DNA from: Pseudomonadales bacterium
GTDB taxonomy: Bacteria > Pseudomonadota > Gammaproteobacteria > Pseudomonadales > IMCC2047
Assembly (NCBI GenBank): GCA_024234615.1
Contig: JACKNY010000002.1
Span: forward strand, 243,528 to 307,527
Direction of reading: 5' to 3'
DNA length: 64,000 nt
Under the pieces are notes generated by a model. That model did not search any database. It was not told the DNA's origin and worked only from the letters and a program-made list of their open reading frames with translations. Below, piece by piece: positions 7,148 through 22,613 of this stretch; positions within the stretch are counted from its first letter, which is position 1; every line of letters starts with the position of its first letter. The position numbers were made by a program, and so were the translations under genes.

Positions 7148-10100
7148 TTTCTAAGCTGCCTGTGCGGCAGTGAACTTGTAATACATTTTTTCCAGATCGA
7201 TCCGGTCTTTCTAAGCTGCCTGTGCGGCAGTGAACGTTAACGCGCCTAACCCCATCGCTTCTGCAGTTTTCTAAGCTGCCTGTGCGGCAGTGAACGCAAT
7301 CGCGCCATAGCTCTGATGCCGTTTTCTTTTCTAAGCTGCCTGTGCGGCAGTGAACTGTTGCCTTTACTGATCCACTTTTCTTTGTTGTTTCTAAGCTGCC
7401 TGTGCGGCAGTGAACGCGGAATGCACAGAGCGGCGTATTACTTAACTTTTCTAAGCTGCCTGTGCGGCAGTGAACAGCGCGCGGTCTGTGCAATCAACGC
7501 CACCGAATTTCTAAGCTGCCTGTGCGGCAGTGAACGTTGATAATATGCTCAGTCAACCTCTTTTAATTTTCTAAGCTGCCTGTGCGGCAGTGAACGCAGC
7601 AAAGATGTAGACGAGTCTTTTGTGCGTTTTCTAAGCTGCCTGTGCGGCAGTGAACAATGACAGTTATGACAAACCGTGTCACCCTCGTTTCTAAGCTGCC
7701 TGTGCGGCAGTGAACGGCACGCTGGCGTCGTAGGTCTTGTTTGCGCATTTCTAAGCTGCCTGTGCGGCAGTGAACTACCTCGTTCGACAGGAGCACCGCG
7801 TTCATGTTTTCTAAGCTGCCTGTGCGGCAGTGAACCGCACCCTCCCGGATCCGTTGCACACCTTGCATTTCTAAGCTGCCTGTGCGGCAGTGAACTTACC
7901 CGTCGATCTGCCCAATTATGGGTTAGATTTCTAAGCTGCCTGTGCGGCAGTGAACGTAACGGCACTCCCTTGATGGTACGGCGCTGTTTTCTAAGCTGCC
8001 TGTGCGGCAGTGAACGCTCATCTGTCACAGCTACAACCCTATCCATTTTTCTAAGCTGCCTGTGCGGCAGTGAACGAATACACGGTCATTGTCCGGCGTA
8101 CCTGTTGTTTCTAAGCTGCCTGTGCGGCAGTGAACCCTTATAAGGGCCGGGCTTTTTTTTTGTTGTTTTTCTAAGCTGCCTGTGCGGCAGTGAACTTTCT
8201 TAAACTCCATGCTGGTTAAGTTGGTATTTTCTAAGCTGCCTGTGCGGCAGTGAACAGCGCGGCAACGTGGGTGCCCTCTTCGGTGATTTTCTAAGCTGCC
8301 TGTGCGGCAGTGAACTTTGTTTTCCTGAACATAAATCCTCCATTCTTTTTCTAAGCTGCCTGTGCGGCAGTGAACCAACTGTCTCGTCTCGCGGGGCAGT
8401 TTCAATATTTCTAAGCTGCCTGTGCGGCAGTGAACGCTAAGGCAATGAAGGCTGTCAAAAAGGTTGTTTTCTAAGCTGCCTGTGCGGCAGTGAACATAAC
8501 CGCTCGTGCTGCTAATTCTGCGCTCTTTTTCTAAGCTGCCTGTGCGGCAGTGAACATTGGGCGATGTGGGTAGAGTCCACTTGATCGTTTCTAAGCTGCC
8601 TGTGCGGCAGTGAACAAACAGTGGACAAACGCAATGCATATTGCTATTTTCTAAGCTGCCTGTGCGGCAGTGAACCCTGCTATTGAGCTTAAAGAAACAC
8701 GTAGTAATTTCTAAGCTGCCTGTGCGGCAGTGAACCAAGCAATCAAAGAGTACGAAAATTCACTATATTTCTAAGCTGCCTGTGCGGCAGTGAACTTAGG
8801 CATTTTGTACATAATAGCAGTATCCTATTTCTAAGCTGCCTGTGCGGCAGTGAACTCAAGGATGCGATTCGCGCCGCATGTTTTTTATTTCTAAGCTGCC
8901 TGTGCGGCAGTGAACGTATCGCTATACGACGAATACGGAATCGAAATTTTCTAAGCTGCCTGTGCGGCAGTGAACTTTAATACACCATCCGGGCAAGATT
9001 TAATCTTTTTCTAAGCTGCCTGTGCGGCAGTGAACGGGGAATTAATGTGAACACATACATCATTGAATTTCTAAGCTGCCTGTGCGGCAGTGAACCCCGA
9101 CTACCGGATCATGGGTTCCTTATTTTGTTTCTAAGCTGCCTGTGCGGCAGTGAACATAGCAAGGCTAATAATTGGGTAGGCCAAATTTTTCTAAGCTGCC
9201 TGTGCGGCAGTGAACAAACAGTGGACAAACGCAATGCATATTGCTATTTTCTAAGCTGCCTGTGCGGCAGTGAACGTAGCATTACATGATGAATACGGAA
9301 TCGAAATTTTCTAAGCTGCCTGTGCGGCAGTGAACATCAAGCCGCCACGCCAGATGGCATCTTTGTTTTTCTAAGCTGCCTGTGCGGCAGTGAACATTAA
9401 AATAAAACCGATAACGCTTGTTGAGACTTTTCTAAGCTGCCTGTGCGGCAGTGAACTCTTTATGGCAGGTTTCGAGCCGTGCTATCTTTTTCTAAGCTGC
9501 CTGTGCGGCAGTGAACACTAAGATTGCATTGTGGGGGGTCGGTATCGTTTTCTAAGCTGCCTGTGCGGCAGTGAACATTGATAAGATTGAGGAGGTCAGC
9601 CTCTTTGATTTCTAAGCTGCCTGTGCGGCAGTGAACTCTATTACGACACGCTCTATCATATACAAATATTTCTAAGCTGCCTGTGCGGCAGTGAACTCTG
9701 TCTTGCTGCCAATGATAATCTGACCATTTTTCTAAGCTGCCTGTGCGGCAGTGAACTGCCAATGGCTTAATGGCGTCAGCGGCATACTTTTCTAAGCTGC
9801 CTGTGCGGCAGTGAACAAAACACGGCTGCATTACAAACCGCTCATTAATTTCTAAGCTGCCTGTGCGGCAGTGAACGATTTATATACATGTATATAAGCG
9901 TCGTGTTCTTTCTAAGCTGCCTGTGCGGCAGTGAACAACGAATGAACCTGTTCACGCGAATCTCTGGTTTTCTAAGCTGCCTGTGCGGCAGTGAACAAAA
10001 GAGCTCGAAATCTGCAACTAGTTTTATTTTTCTAAGCTGCCTGTGCGGCAGTGAACCAAAATTTACGGGGAGTATGGCGCCACCCTCGTTTCTAAGCTGC

Positions 10101-10776
10101 CTGTGCGGCAGTGAACAACAGCATATAACAGAAAGTACTAAAACTAGATTTCTAAGCTGCCTGTGCGGCAGTGAACTTGGGGAATGTTAATAGAGTTTGT
10201 TTATGAGTTTTCTAAGCTGCCTGTGCGGCAGTGAACAGCCTATTTATTAAAGCGCAAATAGCAGAACATTTCTAAGCTGCCTGTGCGGCAGTGAACCACG
10301 GCGCGTGCGCAGCTCAGGAATTTAACATTTTCTAAGCTGCCTGTGCGGCAGTGAACTACCCAGCGCTTGCGCCTGCGCCAAGTTGTCTTTTCTAAGCTGC
10401 CTGTGCGGCAGTGAACGTTGTACGCATTATTATTTAGATGATGCTGACTTTCTAAGCTGCCTGTGCGGCAGTGAACGTTCTGGAAGTCTATCTGATCGAC
10501 TGACATAATTTCTAAGCTGCCTGTGCGGCAGTGAACAAAAACTATATACACGGCTCAACGATAGATCATTTCTAAGCTGCCTGTGCGGCAGTGAACAGGT
10601 GGGTTTTGGGCTGTTGGAAATGTTTGCATTTCTAAGCTGCCTGTGCGGCAGTGAACATGAGCGAGTTGACAGATAAGCAGTTTGCAGCTTTCTAAGCTGC
10701 CTGTGCGGCAGTGAACTTTTCGTCGGTATGTTTATAAATCTCTGAGTATTTCTAAGCTGCCTGTGCGGCAGTGAAC
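7148..10776 (-). CRISPR. Type I-F CRISPR array: 61 identical 28-bp repeats GTTCACTGCCGCACAGGCAGCTTAGAAA, 60 spacers (59 of 32 nt, one of 33 nt at 9396-9428)
   Basis: 60-bp periodicity 7148-9395 (38 repeats), then 9429-10776 (23 repeats); Csy4-type hairpin CTGCC-N5-GGCAG; AT-rich leader on the cas side. Confidence 0.99.
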
Positions 10777-10930
10777 TGAAGTATAAGACACAAAAAAATA
10801 GTTACAACAAACACTTAGTCAAAAAATCCCGGTTTAACCAAAGTTTTTGAGATGTCTGTAACTATTTGATTTCATATAAAATTTTTAAAGAGCAATAAAT
10901 ATTAATATTTAGTTCCATATAAACACGAAG
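10777..10930 (-). promoter_or_regulatory. CRISPR leader with IHF-like sites
   Basis: AT-rich. Minus-strand AATCAAATAGTTA (10859-10871) fits WATCAANNNNTTR exactly; a 2-mismatch site lies at 10806-10818. I-F leaders are known to use IHF. Confidence 0.75.
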
Positions 10931-11018
10931 TACAGATCCAGTTATAAACGATTATTACTACTACTTCTGATACGTAAATACTCTAACAACGCTCCATTGG
11001 GGTTTGGGGGAAATCAAC

Positions 11019-11354
11019 TCACACGCCGCACCGCTCTATTTTCTCTTCAATCGCAGCACTTACGAAGGCATTTAATGATTGTTCACCCGCAGCGATTGTT
11101 GCCCGCCGATGTAAATCAGGAGAGACCCTCACATTGAATGTCCCTTTGAACGGAATATTAGGTTCTTTTTTTTGCTCTCGGCAAAAGGTTAAGTAGTCGT
11201 CAACCGCCTCTTTAAACGCTTTTTCAAGATTTTTGACTGTCGTTGCTTCGTAGTTAACCAGGTCGCGAATGTACGCCAGTTTTCCATACAGGCAGTGATC
11301 CTCCGCGCTGTATTCAGCAGTGCCATAATAGCCTTTATATTCCAGCATATTCAT
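11019..11354 (-). CDS. hicB: HicB-family antitoxin (C-terminal RHH)
   Basis: MLEYKGY.G..EY...LYGK; FKGTFNVRVSPDLH; start overlaps the hicA stop. Confidence 0.88.
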   Translation of the reverse strand: MNMLEYKGYYGTAEYSAEDHCLYGKLAYIRDLVNYEATTVKNLEKAFKEAVDDYLTFCREQKKEPNIPFKGTFNVRVSPDLHRRATIAAGEQSLNAFVSAAIEEKIERCGV

Positions 11355-11593
11355 ACTAAACCTTCACGCTCCAACATTTCTTTAACCTGCTTCACCGCAT
11401 AGGTTTTTACTTCCTTTTGCGGGTGAGGCTTATGCAACTTAATAATCACGACGCCATTGGTAAAACTAACACGTGAACCGGCACCTTCGACTTTCTGAAA
11501 TCCCAGGTGAGACAGCAGTAGAACCATATCAGTCCATTTAAATTGTCCTGTCGATGCTTTAAATCTCGCCAGCAACTTCTCTGTTTTGCTCAT
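11351..11593 (-). CDS. hicA: HicA-family toxin (RNase)
   Basis: MSKTEKLL..F, GSRVSF, LHKPHP motifs; ATG at 11593. Confidence 0.85.
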   Translation of the reverse strand: MSKTEKLLARFKASTGQFKWTDMVLLLSHLGFQKVEGAGSRVSFTNGVVIIKLHKPHPQKEVKTYAVKQVKEMLEREGLV

Positions 11594-11613
11594 TTGAGTC
11601 CTTTCAATTATGT

Positions 11614-11662
11614 GCAACTAATTATAGTTGCTCTAGCGCAATTCGCAACTAAAATTAGTTGC
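11614..11662. promoter_or_regulatory. Two 18-bp palindromic operators upstream of hicA
   Basis: GCAACTA-ATTA-TAGTTGC (11614-11631) and GCAACTAA-AA-TTAGTTGC (11645-11662), 31 bp apart; probable HicB sites (inference). Confidence 0.7.
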
Positions 11663-11727
11663 AATCTGCTCTCCTTTCTAGCCGATCATAATCACTTCAT
11701 GGCTTTATTCCCTCTGTTCCAATGAAA

Positions 11728-12279
11728 CTAGAACCAGGGAATGGTTGCTGTTTTGCTAAGGCCAAATTGATCAAATCTACCCTCCCTTGATTCATTTATT
11801 AATTCTCCAAACTCAATATAGCGCCGGTGCCGGTGCCCATTGGAACCACTCACCAATTCAACATAGGGATTATCCAGCCCTTTGGTAAACATTTTGACTT
11901 TGTATTGTTTCACTTCATCCGCCGAAATCGATCCGCGCTTTAACAAGCGCTCCAATTTTGAATGACTCATGGTGGTTTGCTTTCGCCCAACAGTCCGGTA
12001 TTGGCAATCAGAAGGGACGGGGAGCACTTCGCTGACCTGACAATAGCCTTTCATACCGCCTAACCAATCGGCCTTTTGTAGCTCGCCTAATTCCTTCGAA
12101 GCGCCATGCAGGCGCAGGATATTACCCAGGGTGATTTGATAACATGGGAAGCTGACACCTATATTTGTTGCTTCTCGGTCATTCAGGGCTTTGTGGAGTT
12201 TGGCGTAGAGCGCGTTCATAAGCACCGTTACAGGTAGTTCCGGATCCGACAATATTTTTATGTTCAGATAATATTCCAT
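11728..12279 (-). CDS. cas6f: Cas6f/Csy4 crRNA endoribonuclease
   Basis: LYAKLHKAL (catalytic His region), IGVSFP, FDQFGLS...IPWF C-terminus. Confidence 0.95.
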   Translation of the reverse strand: MEYYLNIKILSDPELPVTVLMNALYAKLHKALNDREATNIGVSFPCYQITLGNILRLHGASKELGELQKADWLGGMKGYCQVSEVLPVPSDCQYRTVGRKQTTMSHSKLERLLKRGSISADEVKQYKVKMFTKGLDNPYVELVSGSNGHRHRRYIEFGELINESREGRFDQFGLSKTATIPWF

Positions 12280-12287
12280 AGCGCCCC

Positions 12288-13313
12288 CTATTTATCACTT
12301 TCACCGAAGACACCACCTCGTACCAAAGTTGCCATGACATAGTGTTCATCTTCAACGCGCGTCAATGCTTCACCTCGCGCCCACTTGTCGAAAAAACTAT
12401 AGAAATCCTGTTTATCTTTAGGTGTACGGTAGGCTTTACCAAGATTGGTAACAGCACCATAAGGCTCGACTGCGATAGGGCCTGCCGAACTCTCTGGATC
12501 ATTAAATTCTGGGTACCAAGTATCAATGGTGCGCAGCGCGTTACCCAGCTTTTGGGAGTGCATAGCGGCAACACCATCAACCTCATACAATACTTTACTT
12601 TTATTGCCTTTACCTTTATCCAATACGAGCTCTTCACTGGGGTAAACGTCCTGAGCCTTGCCCACTTGTGCGTAGCATGTAATATCCAGCATTAGAAAAT
12701 CATCCTCGCTAGCTAGAGCACTAGCAATACAAGCAGCTAGATCATTCACCTGATGATCATCTGAATCAAAGTTACGGGGGTTGAATTGGTGCGCATCGAA
12801 CTGCCACTCCTGCTCAGCACCCTTGTTCAACGCCCTCACCTGTACTTCAATATTTTCCGCACCCACACGATTGCGCCATAGGAAACGAGCATTGGCTATA
12901 TTCAATGCATAGCGGCGCGCCAGTTCACGAAAACGCTCTTTCTCGACATAGGCTTTAGCCGCCATACTGTAACTTTGCTTAAAGGCTGCATTATTACAGG
13001 CCGACGGCTGGTGAATACCGCCTAATACTTTGAGGGTAAAATGAAGTTCAAGCGTATCCTGTTCGGTTTCGAGAGCACAGGAATCCACTGTTTGCAGATT
13101 GGCCTTCTCCACTTCTTTATTCAGCTTTACTGGATCGTTCTGAATAGCCGGTTTCAAACGATTGGAAATGGTGCCGCGAACGGATTTTTCTTTTAACTTG
13201 AGCGGGCTTGGTTCATTACGGTTGTTCCATTGAGTGCCGAACATATAACCGTCCGATGGCACCAGTTTCTTTTCAAAGGCCAGTACGGATGCAATATTTT
13301 CATTTTTAGCCAT
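12288..13313 (-). CDS. csy3: Cas7f/Csy3
   Basis: VLAFEKKL, EKSVRGTISN, NIANARFLWRNR, HSQKLGNALRTID, RGGVFG. Confidence 0.96.
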   Translation of the reverse strand: MAKNENIASVLAFEKKLVPSDGYMFGTQWNNRNEPSPLKLKEKSVRGTISNRLKPAIQNDPVKLNKEVEKANLQTVDSCALETEQDTLELHFTLKVLGGIHQPSACNNAAFKQSYSMAAKAYVEKERFRELARRYALNIANARFLWRNRVGAENIEVQVRALNKGAEQEWQFDAHQFNPRNFDSDDHQVNDLAACIASALASEDDFLMLDITCYAQVGKAQDVYPSEELVLDKGKGNKSKVLYEVDGVAAMHSQKLGNALRTIDTWYPEFNDPESSAGPIAVEPYGAVTNLGKAYRTPKDKQDFYSFFDKWARGEALTRVEDEHYVMATLVRGGVFGESDK

Positions 13314-13340
13314 GAGTTTTCTCCTTGTTTACACAGATAA

Positions 13341-14261
13341 TTAAAAGCCATCTTCTTCAAGCAAAGATTGCGGGCTTGGTTTAGATTGCTGACATAAATA
13401 CAGATTATTTTCAGGTTCAAAGTGATAGCTCCAGAACAGTTCTTGCGGAGTTTCCAATTTGTAGGCCATCTTAAACTCACCCAGAGTCACTATGCTTTCT
13501 GCAAAACGGTGAGGCACATCAGGATCGCGCTGATTTTCCGCTCGACCCAGTTTGCTAATCCCCTGAAACCCGGTAGCGATTGGAACTATCCAACCACGTT
13601 GATCCTGGTCACCGGTGGGTTTGCGCTGACTACTCCACGTCACCTTTGCTTCTCCGTTTTCTTCATGCTGCTCGCAGCTATGGTGAATTGCTAAGTAGTC
13701 CAACATGGCGTCAATAGCATCTTGACCTTGTTCCATCGCTTCAATCATTAAGTCGCGCCTCTCTATCAAGGCGTAACCGGGCATGAGTTTAGGCTTTAGT
13801 AGACTAAAATTTTTATAGAAGGCTGGTTTCTCAAAGCTTAAGATATCGCCACCGGCGATTTTTATCTGACTGTTCAAGCAATGGATAATTTTCTCCAATG
13901 CGTCATCCTCTTGCAGCTTGTCAATGCCATCGTAGAGAATCACCAAACTGACCTCTAGGTGACACCGAGCCTCTTCAATAAATGCTGACCGGGTACCGTC
14001 TTTATCCAACGGATTGGCGGTCCCGACAATGGAATATTCGAAGTCACCAGGCCCCTTGTAGGTTTGCAAATCAAACTGATGGGAAACGACACCCATCTTG
14101 TCAAAACGAGCATCAACTCCCTTAGCATTAAGTTTACGCTGCAAAGCGTGTACGACACCCAGCCAAGCGGTCATGGCCGGAAACCCAATGGTAAAAGGAC
14201 TGGAAAGTGCATTAGCATTTTGAATGCGGATATGGGGTATTAGTAGCACATTGTCAATCAT
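13341..14261 (-). CDS. csy2: Cas5f/Csy2
   Basis: IQNANALSSPFTIGFPAMTAWLG; HRFAE; operon position. Confidence 0.95.
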   Translation of the reverse strand: MIDNVLLIPHIRIQNANALSSPFTIGFPAMTAWLGVVHALQRKLNAKGVDARFDKMGVVSHQFDLQTYKGPGDFEYSIVGTANPLDKDGTRSAFIEEARCHLEVSLVILYDGIDKLQEDDALEKIIHCLNSQIKIAGGDILSFEKPAFYKNFSLLKPKLMPGYALIERRDLMIEAMEQGQDAIDAMLDYLAIHHSCEQHEENGEAKVTWSSQRKPTGDQDQRGWIVPIATGFQGISKLGRAENQRDPDVPHRFAESIVTLGEFKMAYKLETPQELFWSYHFEPENNLYLCQQSKPSPQSLLEEDGF

Positions 14262-15523
14262 CGCAATGCCTCCCGATGGGTTGTGATCACGCCTTTAAGA
14301 TACTCGCGTTCAGCAGAACCTAAAGTAACCGATTTTTTTATCGTCTTTTGGTAGGCCTTGCCGATCCAAAGGGTGATTTCCTTGCAGAGTTCCATCAACC
14401 ATTCATCCTCCTTCTCTCGCTGCAGTCTGTATTCAGGGCAAAGCCAGATTTTTTGATATTGCGGTAATTGGCTGGTTTCCTCCCGATACTGCTCTTCAGC
14501 GATAGACCGCAGGGCCGCCATCCGCGGGATAATCACATCGAGAATTTCCTCAATCCGGTGATCTCGCCCGCTTTCCAGATTGCGGCGTGGAATCATACTG
14601 TCCAAGCCAATTTTGAAAATGCTGTGTAACTTTAATAATGCATCATGAATGTCGTAATAACGAATCGCGTTAGTAAAAAAGTTTTTGACAGGAAATTGAA
14701 TATCACGTTTTACCAACGTCGGAGGTACTGACAAAAGCAAACGCGCTTTACCCCCGTGCTGATTGTTTAATACGCTTATATTTTGCGGTTTCGTGCCACC
14801 ATAGCCAATTGTCGTGATGTCATAGATTTCTGAAAAACTCTTTTCACTCGGCTGATTGTTGCGTTTCCGCTCACGCAGGATCTTTTGATTTTCAGAGAAT
14901 CGTAGCGCATCAATGCGATGACGCAACTCGTAAATTATTCCAGAGTTGCTCAGTATAGAGAGCTGGTGATAATTATTACCCGCAGGAAAGTAGACCTGTT
15001 TAATTTTGGAGCTGGTTATACTTTTGTCACTGCCTAAAGTCATCGCCAGAAAACCGTCTTTTAGCGTTTGATAATTTTCCGTTTCAATCGACAATAGTTC
15101 CTTAGCCAAATCAGAATCATGTTGGATATGTTGCAGCAACGTTTCACCATTTTGCATCTCCAAAGTGAGAAACTTGTAGACATCCAGAGCAGCGGCATTA
15201 CCCAGTGCATCACCCTGCACCTGAGCATTGCCGGTTCTTAGGTAACCGTCTGGTGCTTGGGAGGCGCTAGCGATAACAGAGGTTACATACCCATTTTTAT
15301 TCTTTCTTGCACTGGGATGACTAAATGTACAGGGATGACTAGAGATGTTTATTTGACCGGCGCGTTTGGCCGCATTAGGTAGCCATTGCTCGGGAGAGAA
15401 AAGCTGCTCACACTCAAACTCTAGTGCCAGCACTTCGTCGTTCTGCATCGAGGGTTTCAAACTTTTTTTTAACCAGCCTTCTTTACGCTCAGTAAAAAAG
15501 GCACCTATTGCAGGGTCTAGCAT
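14258..15523 (-). CDS. csy1: Cas8f/Csy1
   Basis: WLPNAAKRAGQ, SHPCTFSHP, GNAAALD, KQVYFP, GGTKPQNIS. Confidence 0.96.
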   Translation of the reverse strand: MLDPAIGAFFTERKEGWLKKSLKPSMQNDEVLALEFECEQLFSPEQWLPNAAKRAGQINISSHPCTFSHPSARKNKNGYVTSVIASASQAPDGYLRTGNAQVQGDALGNAAALDVYKFLTLEMQNGETLLQHIQHDSDLAKELLSIETENYQTLKDGFLAMTLGSDKSITSSKIKQVYFPAGNNYHQLSILSNSGIIYELRHRIDALRFSENQKILRERKRNNQPSEKSFSEIYDITTIGYGGTKPQNISVLNNQHGGKARLLLSVPPTLVKRDIQFPVKNFFTNAIRYYDIHDALLKLHSIFKIGLDSMIPRRNLESGRDHRIEEILDVIIPRMAALRSIAEEQYREETSQLPQYQKIWLCPEYRLQREKEDEWLMELCKEITLWIGKAYQKTIKKSVTLGSAEREYLKGVITTHREALR

Positions 15524-15526
15524 GAA

Positions 15527-18500
15527 TTATCTCCTTTCGTCCTTAAACAACCCAAATTGATCGTCGTATATATAATTAGGGGGTGATTGATTCTCATAGG
15601 GCTCTTGAATCACCACCTCGCCATAACGAAGAGCCGCCGTATTCAGGCTGATTTCTTTTTGCTCAGCCTGTACTTCAAGAAGGCTGCGGTAATCTCGAAA
15701 AAGCCAAAACCGCTGTCGCTGCTGATCAGAAAGCTCCATATTTTGAATACGGTAGCAATCGTCCTGATTGATTAGATCTCCCGCGACTGTGAATGCAGCT
15801 TTCCCCTTATTATCTTTTTCTGTGAAATAGCAGTGTCCTTTGTCATCAAAACAGCGATACAGGTGTATACTCGCCCTGCTTTGCCGGAAGCGATTAAGTG
15901 CTTGTGGCAAAGCTGTCATAAACCAATTTTGGCTTAAATAGCCCTGCAGTGTTTCTGGGCCTTTTGCATCGTATTGTTTCAGCCAATGCGCGGTTACAGC
16001 ATGTTCCAATCGGGCAAGGCCAAAACCTTTTGGCGGATTTTCATCGATGCGGGGTATGGCATCCAGCCGTTCTGCAACCGATTTTTCATTAACCAGTATT
16101 CTCAAATCATGAACTTCACAGGACGCGCTTCGCTCTCTCCCATTCACCTTGATCTGGCCATTAAACTCATAGCCTGGCATGCAAAAATAACAGGCGTGCT
16201 TTTTATCCCCCGACTTGATGGTTTTCCAATTGTATTGCAACAAGCCGACATTCGATGTTTGAACCGCCCCGGAACGGTGACGCCTCACCCGTCCGGCCAG
16301 TTGAACAATGGAACGATAAGATGAGGGTTCAACAATGGCCCAATCAAAATCATGATCGCGACCAACCTCTTCTACCGGAGTAGCGATCAGAATAAACACT
16401 ACATTTTTGGGCGGCTCAGATTGATTTGATAACGAATCCAGGTGTTCCCGAATCAGAACATTTTTGAACGCTTTCGCTTTTTCACCGAGTTTTTCCTTAT
16501 ACTTTAGCACCGCATCCAGATGCCTTTCCTGTTCGTGCCTTAATAACATTACCTGTTGGCTGTGATAGGGCATCACCCGGATTGCTGTATCTGTGGGTAA
16601 TGGGCATTCCAGCAGATAACGTGTCAATGCAATACAGGGGGAAATGTTAGCCATGCGCACCACACCAAAAGATACTTTCAAATCAGTTGCTTGATCAGTT
16701 TGGTGGTGTTGATGGTGTTTGATCAGAGCATCCTGGAAAATGGTCTCGAAATAGCCTGTCTGTCTCGTTGTTTCAATATCACCCTTCCCTGAGGCTTCCA
16801 GCTCCAGTATCATTTGACAATCAATAATATTGGCTTTGCGTTTTGCCTGCTGTTTACACAATGCAGCGACCCTCTTTTCGATAAAAATACTGTGTGCGGC
16901 GGCATACTCCTGGTTTGCTTGCACTGCATTCTGGGCGCTATTGTTAACAATGTGGGTAGTGAACTCGTCAATCCAGGCACAGCCTATAACCTGGCTCGCA
17001 TTACGGGTTTGGCAATACAGCTGCCAGCCCCGTTGGTAACAATTAAAGTATCCTTCCGCTAAAGAAGGTGGAATCGTAGCTGAAGAGATCATCACCTTCC
17101 TCCCTAGCATTCCCGCTAAATGAATCAAACGTCCAATAGCAATTAAGTCCGAGCCAGTAAAGTCGTCAATTTCGTCAATGACTAAATCTGACGACATCAA
17201 ACGCAGGCTCGGTAAGATATATCGCCCACCACGGGTGGTTTCGGTGGCTGCCATGATGTGGTCAATGGTGCAAGTTAGGATGGGGGCATAGAGGAAAGCT
17301 CTGTCTCTTTGGGTTTGTAGCAGCGTCGCTAACCCATCCTCAGGAGTATCACTATCAAAAATAACCTCATCACTATTTCCAAGCAGAGATTCCTGCGATT
17401 CTGAGCCCTGCTCCGTTGTTGTGTCACCCTCAGCTTGCTCCTTCGCCTGCGCGTGCAACTCAGCGACTGCTTTGGAACCAATTAACACCGCTAAATCACT
17501 ACCGTCAGTATTTTTGAAAATTCTTTCGCGATATTCGTCACCGGTTTGTAATGTCAAAGTGCGCAGCCCAAGCGCCAAAATATAGCGAAGGCTATCCTGG
17601 TTCTCAGAAAGCGCTAACATAGCTTTCGCATTGGCAAAGGTTTTGCCGCTACCCGTACTAGCCATATTAACGGCGAAAAAACCATGTTTCGTTTCGTTAC
17701 TGGCTTTAACCCACTCTTGGATTTTCGAAGCTGCCCTATCCTGCCAGCGGTACTCGGCGGGGCTTTTTTTTCTAAGCTCGGCAATGTTGTCAGAATCCGG
17801 TAATGCCTGCTCCAACACAGGAAGCTTATAGACATTACGCAGTGCCTGCCGGTAGACACCCACTAGATGCTGATCCAATGACTGTTTGGGCGAACCACCC
17901 TTTTGGGTATTGGCGACCAAGCCAGTGGTATTTCGCCACTCACCGGACTCCTTTAAAGTCAGCGATGAATAATAGTGATCACCCAACATCAGGCAAAGGC
18001 GGGCATGATGTAACACCGTCCGGTAACTACCATCTTGCATAATCTGTGCGACAAGCTCTTGTTGGCCTAGCAGCTTTTTAGCCCAACGTTTGAGTTCTTT
18101 TAACCAGGGCTGGGAATTACTAATTAGCCCCTTGGGGAAATGAAGACAATCTTTAAGCTGCTGATCGTAGCCATCAAATCGGTTTTCGTAACTCCAATCT
18201 TGAGTAATGTATGCAAACAGGTCGTCCATAGTTTCCGTTGCAACACCGCACCACTCATTCAGTAATATGCTAGGCTTTAAGGTCTGCAACGGTAAGCGGT
18301 GGTGGGTTAAAATCAACCAAGCAACCAGCTTAGCTGTCTGCGGTAGCTCGGCAAGCGGCCTTCGAAATTTTAGAAGATCAGTTTGCTTTAACGCTTCTTC
18401 ATTAATTTCGCCCTCGGCCAGCTGCGTTAACCAACCGCTATCCGACTCCGAATCCGTCTTGCAGATCAGCGCTTTGAGTAATAGACAAGAGATCCATTCA

Positions 18501-18949
18501 TGGCGAAGTGCATCGCCGTATTTGCCTTTGTACTCCTGTGATAATTTTTCCTGAAAGCGGGCGCTGGCTTTACCCCAGTCATGCAACAAGGCCGCCAGGG
18601 ATACCAACGACTGAATAAGGGGAAGATACTTCCAGTCAGCGCGATCATCGCGGTACGTTCGATTAACCGTGGTGCTATTCACGGGAACTAAACCCAGACC
18701 ATTAAATTTGCTTTTATTCCCAACCAACCAAACCAACTCCGTCCGTGACCGGCTCCTTACCCAATGACAACTCACCGCCGTATTCTTGGTTGCAGTTTTG
18801 CGCAGCAGTTTTTTCACTGCCAACAACCCTTCTTGCGTGATGACGGTTTGCCAAGTATTGTCACCAATGCGGTCCGCAAACGCATCCAGCACCCGCCGGG
18901 TACGGTTAAGTGCCTTTTTCTCGCATTGAGAGACGAAAGTGACCATCAT
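15527..18949 (-). CDS. cas3f: Cas2-Cas3 fusion (Cas3f) nuclease-helicase
   Basis: N-term MMVTFVSQCEKKAL...RVLDAFA (Cas2), LLHDWGK (HD), MASTGSGKT, DEIDDF, SAT, QLAGRVRRH. Start set at ATG 18949. Confidence 0.97.
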   Translation of the reverse strand: MMVTFVSQCEKKALNRTRRVLDAFADRIGDNTWQTVITQEGLLAVKKLLRKTATKNTAVSCHWVRSRSRTELVWLVGNKSKFNGLGLVPVNSTTVNRTYRDDRADWKYLPLIQSLVSLAALLHDWGKASARFQEKLSQEYKGKYGDALRHEWISCLLLKALICKTDSESDSGWLTQLAEGEINEEALKQTDLLKFRRPLAELPQTAKLVAWLILTHHRLPLQTLKPSILLNEWCGVATETMDDLFAYITQDWSYENRFDGYDQQLKDCLHFPKGLISNSQPWLKELKRWAKKLLGQQELVAQIMQDGSYRTVLHHARLCLMLGDHYYSSLTLKESGEWRNTTGLVANTQKGGSPKQSLDQHLVGVYRQALRNVYKLPVLEQALPDSDNIAELRKKSPAEYRWQDRAASKIQEWVKASNETKHGFFAVNMASTGSGKTFANAKAMLALSENQDSLRYILALGLRTLTLQTGDEYRERIFKNTDGSDLAVLIGSKAVAELHAQAKEQAEGDTTTEQGSESQESLLGNSDEVIFDSDTPEDGLATLLQTQRDRAFLYAPILTCTIDHIMAATETTRGGRYILPSLRLMSSDLVIDEIDDFTGSDLIAIGRLIHLAGMLGRKVMISSATIPPSLAEGYFNCYQRGWQLYCQTRNASQVIGCAWIDEFTTHIVNNSAQNAVQANQEYAAAHSIFIEKRVAALCKQQAKRKANIIDCQMILELEASGKGDIETTRQTGYFETIFQDALIKHHQHHQTDQATDLKVSFGVVRMANISPCIALTRYLLECPLPTDTAIRVMPYHSQQVMLLRHEQERHLDAVLKYKEKLGEKAKAFKNVLIREHLDSLSNQSEPPKNVVFILIATPVEEVGRDHDFDWAIVEPSSYRSIVQLAGRVRRHRSGAVQTSNVGLLQYNWKTIKSGDKKHACYFCMPGYEFNGQIKVNGRERSASCEVHDLRILVNEKSVAERLDAIPRIDENPPKGFGLARLEHAVTAHWLKQYDAKGPETLQGYLSQNWFMTALPQALNRFRQSRASIHLYRCFDDKGHCYFTEKDNKGKAAFTVAGDLINQDDCYRIQNMELSDQQRQRFWLFRDYRSLLEVQAEQKEISLNTAALRYGEVVIQEPYENQSPPNYIYDDQFGLFKDERR

Positions 18950-19165
18950 GAGTTTTATTAATCCCATTCTATTTGTAAGGATTAGACTGTTGTCACGCCA
19001 ACGAATCAACAGCCTTCGCCCTAATGACTACCCCAAATACCAGATGCAGCATCCAAAGACTCGGCGATTGGTCTTCACTACCAAAGAAGACATCAGCCTT
19101 ACTCTCGACGAGAGTATATTTTAAATAAAATCTATTTAAAACCTATAGGAAGTTGATTTAATATA

Positions 19166-19247
19166 TAACTCTGCCGTATAGGCAGCTTAGAAATATAGTA
19201 AGTTCATTTAAATCTTTATCTTTACTGCCGCACAGGCAGCAGACCAG
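19166..19247 (+). ncRNA. CRISPR mini-array (degenerate repeat - 26-nt spacer - degenerate repeat); putative CreR/CreA-type regulatory RNA
   Basis: Repeat 1 TAACTCTGCCGTATAGGCAGCTTAGAAA (19166-19193); spacer 19194-19219; repeat 2 CTTTACTGCCGCACAGGCAGC... (19220-). Both Cas6f hairpins intact. Spacer matches 19144-19161 behind a CC PAM. Confidence 0.85.
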
Positions 19248-19282
19248 GGAGAAATCACTACATGTGTTTCTCCCTGGTTTTT
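19243..19282 (+). terminator. Intrinsic terminator closing the mini-array transcript (possibly bidirectional)
   Basis: 12-bp stem ACCAGGGAGAAA / TTTCTCCCTGGT followed by a T run. Confidence 0.7.
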
Positions 19283-19300
19283 CCAATTTCACTTTGATGA

Positions 19301-19885
19301 TCATTTCCCCGCCAACTTTTTAACAGTTTTGTTCTCTACCAGTAGCCCCATCTGTTGAATAGCGATCTGGTTAAGACGAACTAATCGTTCTTGTTGGGCC
19401 AACCCATCGTTAATAAATACCGTATTTAGATTTCCCATATTAGCCAAGCAAACCAATTGGGTAACATTCGCGTAGTCACGAATATTGCCACTTTTGTCTG
19501 AGTGTTCCGCTCGCCATTGAGAAGTGGTTTTACCAAAAAGCGCCACATTGAGGACATCAGCTTCACTGGCATACATCTGGTTTATTGCCTGCTGTGATAA
19601 AGCTTCGGGCACCAGATTTCCTTTAATGGCATCGGTATGAATACGATAGTTTATTTTGGCTAGATTACGCTTAATGTCCCAATCTAAGCCTTTTTCTTGC
19701 TCGCTTTTTAACCCCTGAAACTCTTTGATTAAATAAAACTTGAACTCTACTGAAACCCATGACGCGAACTCTAATGCAATATCAGCAGGCGACTCAGGGT
19801 TTTTATATTTTGCAATATCTGTGATGCTAATAAAGTCTTCGGTGCTCGTTTGAGTGAATGAAATTTTCCTGCCAATAACATCCAT
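19301..19885 (-). pseudogene. KilA-N-family DNA-binding protein with in-frame deletion of the KilA-N core
   Basis: FISITDIAKYKNPE joins directly to DIALEFASW..EFK.YLIKEFQ.LK; C-term KINYRIHTDAIK, YASEADVLNVALFG, NIRDYA typical of the family. Confidence 0.7.
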
Positions 19886-20068
19886 AGTCTGATTCCTACT
19901 ACGCATTACCCATACCCCTCTTTGTAACACTGAAACCTTTAGCCGTTATCAACACGATTAAGAAAATATAATCATTCGATAAAATAGTGATGTCTTCCCC
20001 CTGAATCGTCACCAACTTATATTTGCTCACCATTTGTTTTGCTCCTACTACATTTATATCCATATTCA

Positions 20069-21028
20069 CTACTTGGCTGCTTCAAGCGCATAAGAATCTA
20101 GTGCAACTGCTTTCACCTGATCAAACATAAAATCCAATGCCTTATGCTGGGTAAAAGCCTGCAAACATTGCTGACGAAACTCCTGTTCGGTAGCATTTTC
20201 TTTGGCGCTAATAAAAGACCAGGGCAGAATCAGCGCGTCTTTGATCAGGTCTGCGATATCAAATACCAAGGCACCTCTCCGGGTTTTACCGTGCATCACT
20301 GCAAAACCATGAGGAATGCCTAATACCCATAGGGTGGTCGCAGCCAGACCATAAGCGAGGTAGTTGCCATGATTGAGAAATGCGTTAGCGGTGTCAGTAG
20401 CTTCACGCTCGCGTACAAAATCACCGTATTTGGTGCTGTTGGCTGCCGTTTTATATAGCTGCTTGGTGAGCTGGGCTTCGATTTTCAGAAGGTCACCAAC
20501 TTTCGACGCTTTTTCGATTTTGTGAAGAAAGTTATTTAATGCCTGGATAATGTGGTCATCATCGCTGCTAAAACCCTCTGCTTTTAAATCGCGATCTTTG
20601 CGCCAAACTTGCTGCAGGTAAGAAATTCTTGCTCGTTGAAAATATTTTGCGGCTTGCAAGCGTTTTTCGTCGTCAAACCAGAATTGCATCCAGCCCTGGA
20701 TATATTCGGTAGGACGGTATTCGCTTTGCGGAGACAGCCATTCAATTTCGTTCGCCATGAGCAATGGCGTCCCACCTCCACCACAAAAGCCTAGCAACAC
20801 GCCTGCTTGCGCCAGCATTCTGGTAGCGGCCTGTGTTATCGATGTTCCAGTACCAAGCAAAAGGCAGGTGGTATTAGCGATCGGGATATTCCAATACTGA
20901 TTTTGATTTTTCTCTTCCGTGAGGTAGAGCACACGGCCATCCTTCTGCATGACACGGCATTTTTCGAGGTAATAGATATTGGCGCGCTTGGAGTGCAGGA
21001 TTGCTTTAAGGTCTGTTAATTGATCCAT
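20069..21028 (-). CDS. cas1f: Type I-F Cas1
   Basis: ILHSKRANIYYLEKCRV, WNIPIANT, GTGTSITQAA, LNHGNYLAYGLAA, HGKTRRGALVFDIAD. Confidence 0.98.
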   Translation of the reverse strand: MDQLTDLKAILHSKRANIYYLEKCRVMQKDGRVLYLTEEKNQNQYWNIPIANTTCLLLGTGTSITQAATRMLAQAGVLLGFCGGGGTPLLMANEIEWLSPQSEYRPTEYIQGWMQFWFDDEKRLQAAKYFQRARISYLQQVWRKDRDLKAEGFSSDDDHIIQALNNFLHKIEKASKVGDLLKIEAQLTKQLYKTAANSTKYGDFVREREATDTANAFLNHGNYLAYGLAATTLWVLGIPHGFAVMHGKTRRGALVFDIADLIKDALILPWSFISAKENATEQEFRQQCLQAFTQHKALDFMFDQVKAVALDSYALEAAK

Positions 21029-21067
21029 CAACAAAACTCCATTCCTGAAGCCCAGTTTCGATAGTCC

Positions 21068-21076
21068 ATTATATCA
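21068..21076 (-). promoter_or_regulatory. Extended -10 promoter element for cas1
   Basis: Minus-strand TGATATAAT (TGn-TATAAT) about 40 nt upstream of the cas1 ATG. Confidence 0.55.
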
Positions 21077-21290
21077 ATTTGTGAGGTTTCAACGTTCTCG
21101 ATAAACTGTCGTTTGTTCACGCTAACTTCCTTTTATTCCTTGTGTGACACCAGTATAGCCAGTACTTTGGTCAAAACATGTCCTGTCGATTTATCCAGTA
21201 TTTTTTATCCGACTAAAGCCAAACCTACTCTTGTGAGACTGAACGGGACTCGGCTTGAGCCTTTATTGATTTTCAGTCTCCCACATAGAG

Positions 21291-21488
21291 TTATCGGTCT
21301 TTTCTTTTAGGCTCTGGCGGTGTCATTAGTAGCCAGACCGAATTGAAAGCTATTTTAAGTTGTTTACCATATTTTTGTTCCTTCACATCGAATTTTTGTG
21401 CCAATTCTTGATGTGAATTTAGCAGCTGCCTGAGTCGTACAAACGTGCGCATAATGACAATATTGGTTTGTAAACGCCCTTTCGGCAT
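21291..21488 (-). pseudogene. C-terminal remnant of an ORF6N-domain protein
   Basis: NIVIMRTFVRLRQLL.SH.ELA.K...E.KY...LMTPPEPKRK resembles the ORF6N-family C-terminus; N-terminal domain absent. Confidence 0.65.
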
Positions 21489-21506
21489 GTGGTTAATCGC
21501 TTCCTT

Positions 21507-22490
21507 TTAGGGCTGGCGGATGCGTTTGCCGCTGTAGATTTCCAGCCCCGCATGCAATCGATTTTGCACAGCCTTGCGCAATTTTACCGGCGCTTCAACA
21601 TAAACGTGAGGAATGTGTTTTAGGATATCCTGCATCAACTCCCGTTCATCCGCATAGGGTAAACTGAGCAGATATTCATTCCCTTGCCATTCTCCTTGCT
21701 GTTGCGGATGCCATTGTTGAAGTGCGATTTCGCGAGCAATTGTTTGGTCGAATCTTAGCTTGGCGGTATGTTTGGCTTGACCGGCAAAGATACCAAAACT
21801 TTGTTCGAAATGGTCTCTCAATACTTGGGCAGGAATAGCCTTTGCTTTCTGATCGGTGATTTCCAGCCATTCGATTCTGGCTAACGAAAAGGTACGGAGC
21901 TCTTGGCGCAGATGACACCAGGCATCGATATACCAGTTTTCGCGATAATACACGAGATTTTGCGGGCTGATCAGGCGCTTGGTTTTCTGTTGATGATAGC
22001 TCGAATAGCGAATGTTCAAACACTGGTGCTGTAGCAACGCTTCACCCACCAACCGAAAAGTGCGGTTGGTAATCTGGCGGTTTGCCATGGGCAGCACTTT
22101 GATATGCTGATCAAACTCGGAGCGTTTGATACCTCTGGCACTTAACAGGCGGTCGATTTGCCGGTCAATCACCCCCAACTCGTCACGCAACAAGCCTTTG
22201 CCAAAGCTTTCCATGCTGTGCATGAGTAGAGTGAGAGATTGCAGTTCATCACTGGTTAGCCAGAGGCCGGGCAGTTCAAATAAATCTCTGTTTTCCCCAA
22301 CATATTGCCAGCCTTTTTCCTTAGCAAAATACTCAATTGGCGCATCGAGATAATCCCGCATTTGCGCTATAGTGCGTTTGACAGTTCTTTCGCCACACTC
22401 TAATTTTTGTGCGAGCAAACTCAGAGTAACTGGTCGTCGATGGTTCTTGAAAATACGATGCAATAGTTGGAAGCGGTCGAACTTGTCCAT
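21507..22490 (-). CDS. WYL-domain transcriptional regulator (HTH-WYL-WCX)
   Basis: N-term wHTH (LAQKLECGERTVKRTI), ENWYIDAWCHLRQELRTFSLARI, SFGIF. Confidence 0.93.
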   Translation of the reverse strand: MDKFDRFQLLHRIFKNHRRPVTLSLLAQKLECGERTVKRTIAQMRDYLDAPIEYFAKEKGWQYVGENRDLFELPGLWLTSDELQSLTLLMHSMESFGKGLLRDELGVIDRQIDRLLSARGIKRSEFDQHIKVLPMANRQITNRTFRLVGEALLQHQCLNIRYSSYHQQKTKRLISPQNLVYYRENWYIDAWCHLRQELRTFSLARIEWLEITDQKAKAIPAQVLRDHFEQSFGIFAGQAKHTAKLRFDQTIAREIALQQWHPQQQGEWQGNEYLLSLPYADERELMQDILKHIPHVYVEAPVKLRKAVQNRLHAGLEIYSGKRIRQP

Positions 22491-22573
22491 GTTTCTTTTG
22501 GTGTACTATAAAAAGATGTCCCGGATGATAAACCGAAAGTCTCAAGGGATTCAATCGGCAGACCCTACTTGAT

Positions 22574-22613
22574 AGCGCTCAGTCTAGCCTTCTCCCCGGT
22601 CAGGGAGAAGGCT
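22574..22613 (-). repeat. REP-like hairpin repeat / terminator after purL
   Basis: AGCCTTCTCCC-N6-GGGAGAAGGCT stem; related to the copy at 62306-62340. Confidence 0.6.

Follow-up and report, generated by a model that had tools for sequence, protein, structure and literature searches.

A mini-CRISPR element located between cas1 and cas2-3 of a type I-F1 system, on the strand opposite to the cas genes, is with a probability of about 0.8 a CreR/CreA-type crRNA-like regulator of that system. Two observations carried this reading. The spacer-like guide and its partially matching, CC-flanked target changed in step across nine loci, and the PAM of that target was held at a nearly constant distance from a promoter-like site reading toward the cas genes. 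Both supported the original prediction of a Csy-guided autoregulator, while the novelty of mechanism that it implied did not stand, because the CreR/CreA class of regulatory mini-arrays is already published. The mini-array may belong to a portable cassette of four parts, namely a guide gene, a target with its PAM next to a -35 hexamer, a promoter and a leader of about 150 nt.

The I-F1 locus, its mini-array and the target

The minus strand of the window (the whole 64,000-nt stretch of DNA that was analysed) harbored a complete type I-F1 system (Table 1). The genome comprised 3.45 Mb in 3 contigs, and the organism recurred with hardly any change in many metagenomes of activated sludge and wastewater. 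The genes cas1 and cas2-3 were separated by 1.1 kb with a terminator hairpin in between, while cas2-3 overlapped csy1. An internal promoter cassette would not fit into this overlap, which, together with the distance of cas1 behind the terminator hairpin, implies that the operon needs a promoter beside the target.

Table 1. Position of the features of the window and of the homologous leader copies (positions of leader copies are those of the respective locus).
Feature	Position	Strand	Description
WYL regulator	21507-22490	minus	
cas1	20069-21034	minus	
ORF209	19301-19930	minus	209-codon phage-like ORF
Intrinsic terminator of the mini-array	19244-19282	plus	11-bp GC-rich core stem (19244-19254/19267-19277), then TTTTT (19278-19282)
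PsiR2, second repeat-like element	19220-19247	plus	CTTTACTGCCGCACAGGCAGCAGACCAG; hairpin CTGCCGCACAGGCAG, identical to the array repeat hairpin
PsiS, spacer-like guide	19194-19219	plus	TATAGTAAGTTCATTTAAATCTTTAT, 26 nt
Predicted mature crRNA-like RNA	19186-19239	plus	54 nt, deduced from the Cas6f cleavage rule and P. aeruginosa CreA2
PsiR1, first repeat-like element	19166-19193	plus	TAACTCTGCCGTATAGGCAGCTTAGAAA; Cas6f hairpin CTGCCGTATAGGCAG and 8-nt handle CTTAGAAA intact
Target	19142-19161	plus	PAM CC 19142-19143 and 18-nt protospacer-like TATAGGAAGTTGATTTAA 19144-19161
Putative mini-array promoter (weak)	19135-19164	plus	-35 TTTAAA 19135-19140, 18 nt, TAATAT 19159-19164
Promoter-like site toward cas2-3	19113-19140	minus	-35 TTTAAA 19140-19135, N16, -10 TATACT 19118-19113
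Leader (5' UTR), conserved and structured	18953-19106	minus	between promoter-like site and cas2-3 start; two covarying helices
cas2-3	15527-18952	minus	operon predicted to be regulated (11728-18952)
csy1	14258-15523	minus	same predicted regulated operon
csy2	13341-14261	minus	same predicted regulated operon
csy3	12288-13313	minus	same predicted regulated operon
cas6f	11728-12279	minus	same predicted regulated operon
hicA/hicB pair	11019-11617	co-oriented with operon	between cas6f and CRISPR array
Main CRISPR array	7150-10780	minus	61 repeats, repeat GTTCACTGCCGCACAGGCAGCTTAGAAA
Leader copy, L030	4844-4999		mini-array in the cas1/cas2-3 gap, as in the window
Leader copy, L010	4847-5000		mini-array in the cas1/cas2-3 gap, as in the window
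Leader copy, L108	2343-2491		Methylophaga frappieri JAM7 (CP003380.1: 1067636-1076034); cas1/cas2-3 gap
Leader copy, L021	8558-8709		homologous cassette in the cas2-3/csy1 gap
Leader copy, L082	189-343		metagenome contig; homologous cassette in the cas2-3/csy1 gap
Leader copy, L083	4880-5032	minus	metagenome contig; homologous cassette in the cas2-3/csy1 gap
Leader copy, L084	3294-3447		metagenome contig; homologous cassette in the cas2-3/csy1 gap
Leader copy, L107	2488-2631	minus	genome from covariance-model search; homologous cassette in the cas2-3/csy1 gap
Leader copy, L036	8362-8482		

On re-reading of the sequence, the repeats, spacer, terminator and target were found exactly where the original prediction had placed them. 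The stems of PsiR1 and PsiR2 were both CTGCC/GGCAG. Both Cas6f hairpins and the handle were intact as claimed, but drift was not confined to the ends of the repeats, since the loop of PsiR1 read GTATA against GCACA in the array. Compared with the array repeat, PsiR1 had diverged in its five 5' bases and in two loop bases, keeping the stem and the handle. PsiR2 kept the whole hairpin, its 3' handle having degenerated and merged into the terminator stem. The Rfam family CRISPR-DR4 matched PsiR1 with an E-value of 4.7e-5 (model positions 6-28) and PsiR2 with an E-value of 0.13, and the 120-nt mini-array transcript including the terminator had a fold z of -6.4 compared with shuffles.

The predicted 54-nt RNA is made of the 8-nt handle, the 26-nt guide and a 20-nt hairpin, and its 5' end reads CUUAGAAA. 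A guide of 26 nt falls within the 23-27 nt reported for spacers of bacterial I-F CreA/CreR (10.1101/2024.10.29.618823). The earlier proposal of a 54-nt guide bound by one Cas7f fewer agreed with published P. aeruginosa CreA2, a 54-nt RNA with five Csy3 (10.1101/2024.10.29.618823).

The target was located 5 nt upstream of the mini-array. As predicted, spacer and target were identical at 16/18 positions with mismatches only at positions 6 and 12 and with CC directly 5', and pairing was lost beyond position 18, with 2/8 matches at positions 19-26. Leaving out every sixth base, all pairing positions matched (15/15). None of 5000 shuffled spacers equalled the observed score within +/-600 nt, and a scan of the window would be expected to yield 0.03 matches even when allowing three mismatches. 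With up to two mismatches allowed, a scan of the whole 3.45-Mb genome recovered the spacer itself and the target and nothing else, and no second target, for instance ahead of ORF209 or cas1, was found by the window and genome scans.

In four aligned metagenomes, the target, PAM, guide and hairpins were invariant apart from T19162G. This natural variant, displayed by a freshwater-sediment population (run X20), is located one base beyond the paired target, inside the TAATAT hexamer that is the -10 candidate of the mini-array.

Guides and targets in homologous cassettes

Relatives were collected as 80 I-F loci through a Cas2-3 profile built from 25 aligned homologues; a related-locus search by Cas2-3 sequence alone returned no loci. 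Most of the 80 loci had a cas1-cas2-3 overlap of 4 nt. Many also displayed opposite-strand repeat-like hairpins in the cas2-3/csy1 gap, which is the position described by Shmakov et al., who reported repeat-like sequences upstream and downstream of cas3 (10.1101/2023.03.03.530964). The nearest Cas2-3 proteins were 68% identical, and their three loci packed cas1, cas2-3 and csy1 together without the cassette, which is therefore dispensable for I-F function. Among 12 family genomes and 400 order genomes, a strict pattern for I-F mini-arrays with short spacers matched only the copy in the window, thus no close orthologue in the lineage. In metagenomes, a pattern tied to the first bases of the guide gave no matches, and a pattern on the PsiR1/PsiR2 loop pair recovered three loci (L082-L084).

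Altogether, eight other I-F loci harbored a homologous cassette (Table 1). In two further loci, the cas1/cas2-3 gap consisted of tandem REP-like units of about 30 nt (TTATTTGTAGGTCGTGCTTTAGCGCGTCA) with no mini-array (L020, 4772-5001; L077, 1512-1624).

All nine guides had a nearby CC-flanked partial match, and in the eight other loci guide and target differed in sequence from those of the window. Shuffled guides did as well as the real one in 0/5000 trials for eight loci and in 2/5000 for L084. Guides and their own targets matched in 129 of the 135 pairing cells (nine loci by 15 positions), compared with a mean of 7.1/15 for cross-locus pairings. Mismatches were never found in the seed (positions 1-5) or at position 7 in any locus, while position 6 was matched in 5/9 loci, position 12 in 1/9 and position 18 in 1/9. 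At 14 of the 15 pairing positions, at least two different matched bases occurred among the first seven loci.

Paired changes could be followed between individual loci. Guide and target had both changed at positions 5 and 13 between the window and Methylophaga frappieri, at 5, 7 and 13 between the window and L030, at 7 between L083 and L084, and at 3 and 10 between L083 and L082. The original prediction had named a spacer-target match that is not conserved in relatives as evidence against itself; guides and targets were found to change in step over the nine loci. The nine-locus alignment is in effect a natural mutagenesis readout of I-F target recognition, with positions 1-5, 7-11 and 13-17 held and positions 12 and 18 free.

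These counts also bear on the idea that the element is a non-functional relic, either a decayed array remnant or a spacer-repeat unit duplicated in tandem, in which the target would be an earlier spacer copy without any regulatory role. Target-PsiR1 and spacer-PsiR2 do follow each other head to tail with a period of 50-54 nt, so that duplication is a plausible origin, and the closest relatives lack the cassette. Drift after a duplication, however, would not put the two mismatches exactly where bases are flipped out (about 3/153) and generate a CC PAM as well, nor would it leave the pairing cells of nine diverged loci matched with positions 12 and 18 free, the PAM within 0-2 nt of a -35 in every locus, and the hairpins and handle intact amid diverged flanks. 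A relic thus appears very unlikely.

Promoter-like sites, leader RNA and transcription

In the window, the PAM complement GG was found 1 nt upstream of the -35 hexamer (GG-T-TTTAAA-N16-TATACT). The arrangement recurred in 9/9 loci, with the PAM complement 0-2 nt from a -35-like hexamer, 16-17 nt to the -10 and a cas-ward reading; the L084 version was GG-TTGACA-N17-TATCAT. Both promoters of the window are consensus matches, and promoter-like matches were no more numerous in the region than in shuffles. It is the fixed distance from PAM to -35 across loci, not the consensus match alone, that lends weight to the predicted site.

The target falls between the putative -35 and -10 hexamers of the mini-array itself. 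Because it ends 9 nt before the PsiR1 hairpin, the mini-array promoter must overlap the target. The two hexamers proposed earlier, TTTAAA at 19135 and TAATAT at 19159, were indeed present on the plus strand; they gave 8/12 matches to consensus, a score below the promoter-scan threshold. TTTAAA is palindromic, and its use as a shared -35, with TAATAT as the -10 of the mini-array, is possible but weak.

Downstream of the promoter-like site, a leader of about 150 nt was homologous in all nine cassette loci and in L036, whether it preceded cas2-3 or csy1. In its helices, 93.7% of the cells were paired compared with 35-54% for slid partners, and 11 of the 20 pairs displayed compensatory changes; none of 500 shuffles reached the observed values. 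The 5' arm of helix 1 contained an invariant GGAUG. Overlap between the 3' hairpin and the first cistron's SD-like GGGA/AGGA has the look of regulation in cis. No Rfam family matched the leader, and a covariance-model search of 400 genomes sampled from the class detected it in two. The main texts searched in the mini-array literature contain no description of this leader RNA or of a mini-array between cas1 and cas2-3, and the cassette thus draws attention to a structured leader that had gone undescribed in those texts.

Mini-array, target and promoter-like site were all missing from L036 (8336-8490), whose leader is situated ahead of csy1, so that loss of the guide from the cassette need not entail loss of the leader.

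Two coding candidates within the leader were set aside. A conserved leader peptide (MLHLVF...) was promising in five loci, and its frame stopped after 5 codons in L082 and was frameshifted in L084, so that RNA structure was preferred. The start codon of a 21-codon ORF (ATG 19092) was missing in L030, L010 and L021.

These ORFs matter for a CreTA-type guard, in which the guide would silence an RNA toxin (CreT) carried by the leader and loss of Csy would kill or arrest the cell. Several traits agree with it. Conservation of the leader extends over all 10 loci in which it occurs, with two covarying helices, and its invariant AUG lies in a stem, as does the CreT start codon of Acinetobacter WCHA45 in a 5-bp stem (PMC10097628). 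A divergent guide gene with an element downstream of the target is moreover the CreTA layout of Acinetobacter and P. aeruginosa (PMC10097628; 10.64898/2026.06.02.729485). A toxin nevertheless seems unlikely. No Shine-Dalgarno sequence preceded the conserved AUG in any locus of the leader alignment, and neither the frame of that AUG nor the 21-codon ORF is kept across loci. No terminator separates the leader from cas2-3, so a toxin would be made with every transcription of the cas operon. L036 has the leader but no mini-array, and the position of the 3' hairpin suggests control in cis.

We read the leader as a cis-acting 5' UTR rather than as a CreT toxin. Being continuous with cas2-3, it would accompany any expression of the operon. 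A more speculative, on balance doubtful, extension is that it forms a second, RNA-level control layer tied to Csy feedback, as an SD-sequestering riboregulator or a new CreT-like RNA, in a loop that here would also throttle Cas2-3.

On the far side of the mini-array, ORF209 abuts the terminator and is convergent with the mini-array. It matched phrog_2657 (E 3.5e-41) from profile position 82 onward only, and KilA-N weakly, and its residues 36-209 were 43-52% identical to phage and satellite KilA-N-type regulator proteins. The N-terminal 40-80 residues were missing, the upstream frame (20064-19905) being closed by two stops; as four metagenomes displayed no indel upstream of ORF209, the truncation is real. 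ORF209 was missing from L030, L010 and Methylophaga frappieri. We regard it as a truncated phage gene that was inserted later and stands outside the cassette. Its position, orientation and absence from relatives ruled it out as a CreP-like toxin.

The phage relationship of ORF209 raises the question of whether the mini-array arrived with it, as a captured viral Cracr-type anti-CRISPR RNA that over-represses cas. The adjacency of the two, the GTATA loop of PsiR1 against the host GCACA, and the existence of viral I-F mini-arrays targeting cas promoters (10.1101/2023.03.03.530964; 10.1101/2024.10.29.618823) would fit such an origin. Yet L030, L010 and M. frappieri share the leader, the position and GTATA or host-type loops without any phage gene, and ORF209 itself is truncated behind a broken frame. 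The guide has the length of bacterial ones, viral Cracr guides being mostly 17-21 nt (10.1101/2024.10.29.618823). In the viral contigs scanned, no repeat-linked copy of the guide was found, the nine matches being chance ones in AT-rich coding DNA. Capture from a phage is therefore extremely improbable.

Transcription of the locus was displayed by a sediment metatranscriptome (run X25, window 10700-22600), in which contig depths were about 632 over the array, 10-15 over the csy genes and 3-5 over cas2-3. This rise along the operon agrees with crRNA being abundant and cas2-3 mRNA scarce in situ, and the coverage of array, csy genes and cas2-3 indicates that the system is active in nature. A low-depth RNA contig of 277 nt spanned 18900-19176, over the leader. 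It reaches past the position predicted for the minus-strand TSS, about 19105, so that part of the transcription may start further upstream. Logan contigs, at a depth of about 3, left 19177-19347 uncovered, and no run among the metatranscriptomes scanned for sequence words of the mini-array contained them. The bin 19037-19433 seemed to have a depth of 45, but this signal disappeared when the same run was aligned without the main array, and it was read as spill-over from abundant repeat-bearing crRNA contigs.

Proposed mechanism and comparison with known systems

In the regulator that we propose, the mini-array would be transcribed from the plus strand and cut by Cas6f after the PsiR1 and PsiR2 hairpins, releasing the 54-nt RNA, which would assemble with Csy1, Csy2, Cas6f and probably five Csy3. 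The RNA would then pair with the target through positions 1-5, 7-11 and 13-18, the step for which the sequence match and the comparison of loci speak directly. With positions 19-26 unpaired, the R-loop would remain incomplete and Cas2-3 would not be licensed to cut. Bound at a distance of 1 nt from the -35 hexamer in the promoter-like site, the complex would repress the leader and cas2-3-csy1-csy2-csy3-cas6f; lying also across the presumed promoter of the mini-array, it would repress both promoters. The resulting negative feedback would derepress the operon when free Csy-guide complex drops, which could happen by dilution, when numerous crRNAs compete, or through anti-CRISPRs that prevent DNA binding.

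The loop would include Cas2-3 besides the effector genes because an insertion has split cas1 from cas2-3. Cas2-3, both interference nuclease and adaptation factor, would thus be under Csy-guided feedback, with cas1 outside the loop. The mechanism adds nothing to CreR/CreA biology, and the value of the locus is comparative. [quoted passage not shown]

Experimental tests of CreR and CreA regulators exist for P. aeruginosa, Acinetobacter, Salmonella and haloarchaea. The window displayed these traits of the I-F representatives: intact hairpins and handle, a short guide, and a partial CC-flanked match in the own cas locus; guide and target covaried in related loci.

The closest resemblance in anatomy was to P. 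aeruginosa CreA2 and the I-F1 mini-array of strain YL84, the latter repressing without cleavage (Shmakov et al. 2023, 10.1101/2023.03.03.530964). As in the window, two degenerate repeats keep the Cas6f hairpin and PsiR1 the 8-nt handle, the element is opposite to the cas genes, and pairing is PAM-proximal beside a CC PAM with mismatches at positions 6 and 12, as described for I-F1 mini-arrays (10.1101/2023.03.03.530964). The 26-nt PsiS of CreA2 yields a 54-nt RNA carried by five Csy3 (10.1101/2024.10.29.618823, by cryo-EM; Wang et al. 2026, 10.64898/2026.06.02.729485), which is the RNA length predicted for the window. The P. aeruginosa elements, however, are located between cas2-3 and csy1 with the -35 about 30 bp from the target, and control creT2 and/or the csy operon. 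In the window, the mini-array occupies the cas1/cas2-3 gap, the PAM adjoins a putative -35, the operon predicted to be controlled includes Cas2-3, and no mini-ORF toxin with proline codons is present.

In the proposed regulatory logic, the window is like CreR of types I-B, I-E and V-A, where a degenerate mini-CRISPR guides the effector to its own cas promoter without any toxin. CreR was demonstrated for these three types and only predicted for I-F (10.1101/2023.03.10.532045), and no structured leader was reported with it. The published feedback model of CreR, in which crRNA load and anti-CRISPRs are sensed (Liu et al., 10.1101/2023.03.10.532045), is the one followed above.

Acinetobacter I-F CreTA (PMC10097628) and CrePA (10.1101/2024.01.05.574328) share with the window a divergent guide gene and a CC-flanked target. 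In these modules the target is next to a promoter, as is predicted for the window, and in CrePA the -35 directly adjoins the target (10.1101/2024.01.05.574328), as the -35-like hexamer does in the window. Both are situated in the cas3-csy1 gap and control a toxin, either an RNA with a Shine-Dalgarno sequence and a 33-bp mini-ORF or the KilAC protein CreP. In the window, the target is followed by the cas2-3 leader, in which a Shine-Dalgarno sequence before the AUG, an ORF intact across loci and a terminator before cas2-3 are all missing. The targeted promoter does not drive ORF209, which is convergent with the mini-array on its far side and is missing from homologous cassettes. Viral Cracr elements, found on mobile elements with guides of mostly 17-21 nt and often with acrIF24, differ from the 26-nt guide inside a chromosomal cas operon.

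Besides these published systems, a homologous cassette was found in the cultured Methylophaga frappieri JAM7, whose locus displays the same order of WYL regulator, cas1, mini-array, target, putative promoter, leader and cas2-3/csy genes. Its guide (TATAAGAAGTTTGTTTATAT) is homologous and covaries with its target at the two positions given above, and it shares the leader RNA with the window (70.6 bits, E 2.8e-12). It differs by a 20-nt PsiS instead of 26 nt, a PsiR2 that overlaps the end of cas1, and the lack of a phage-gene insertion. With the same architecture in a cultured strain, M. frappieri JAM7 would offer a practical bench model of the cassette.
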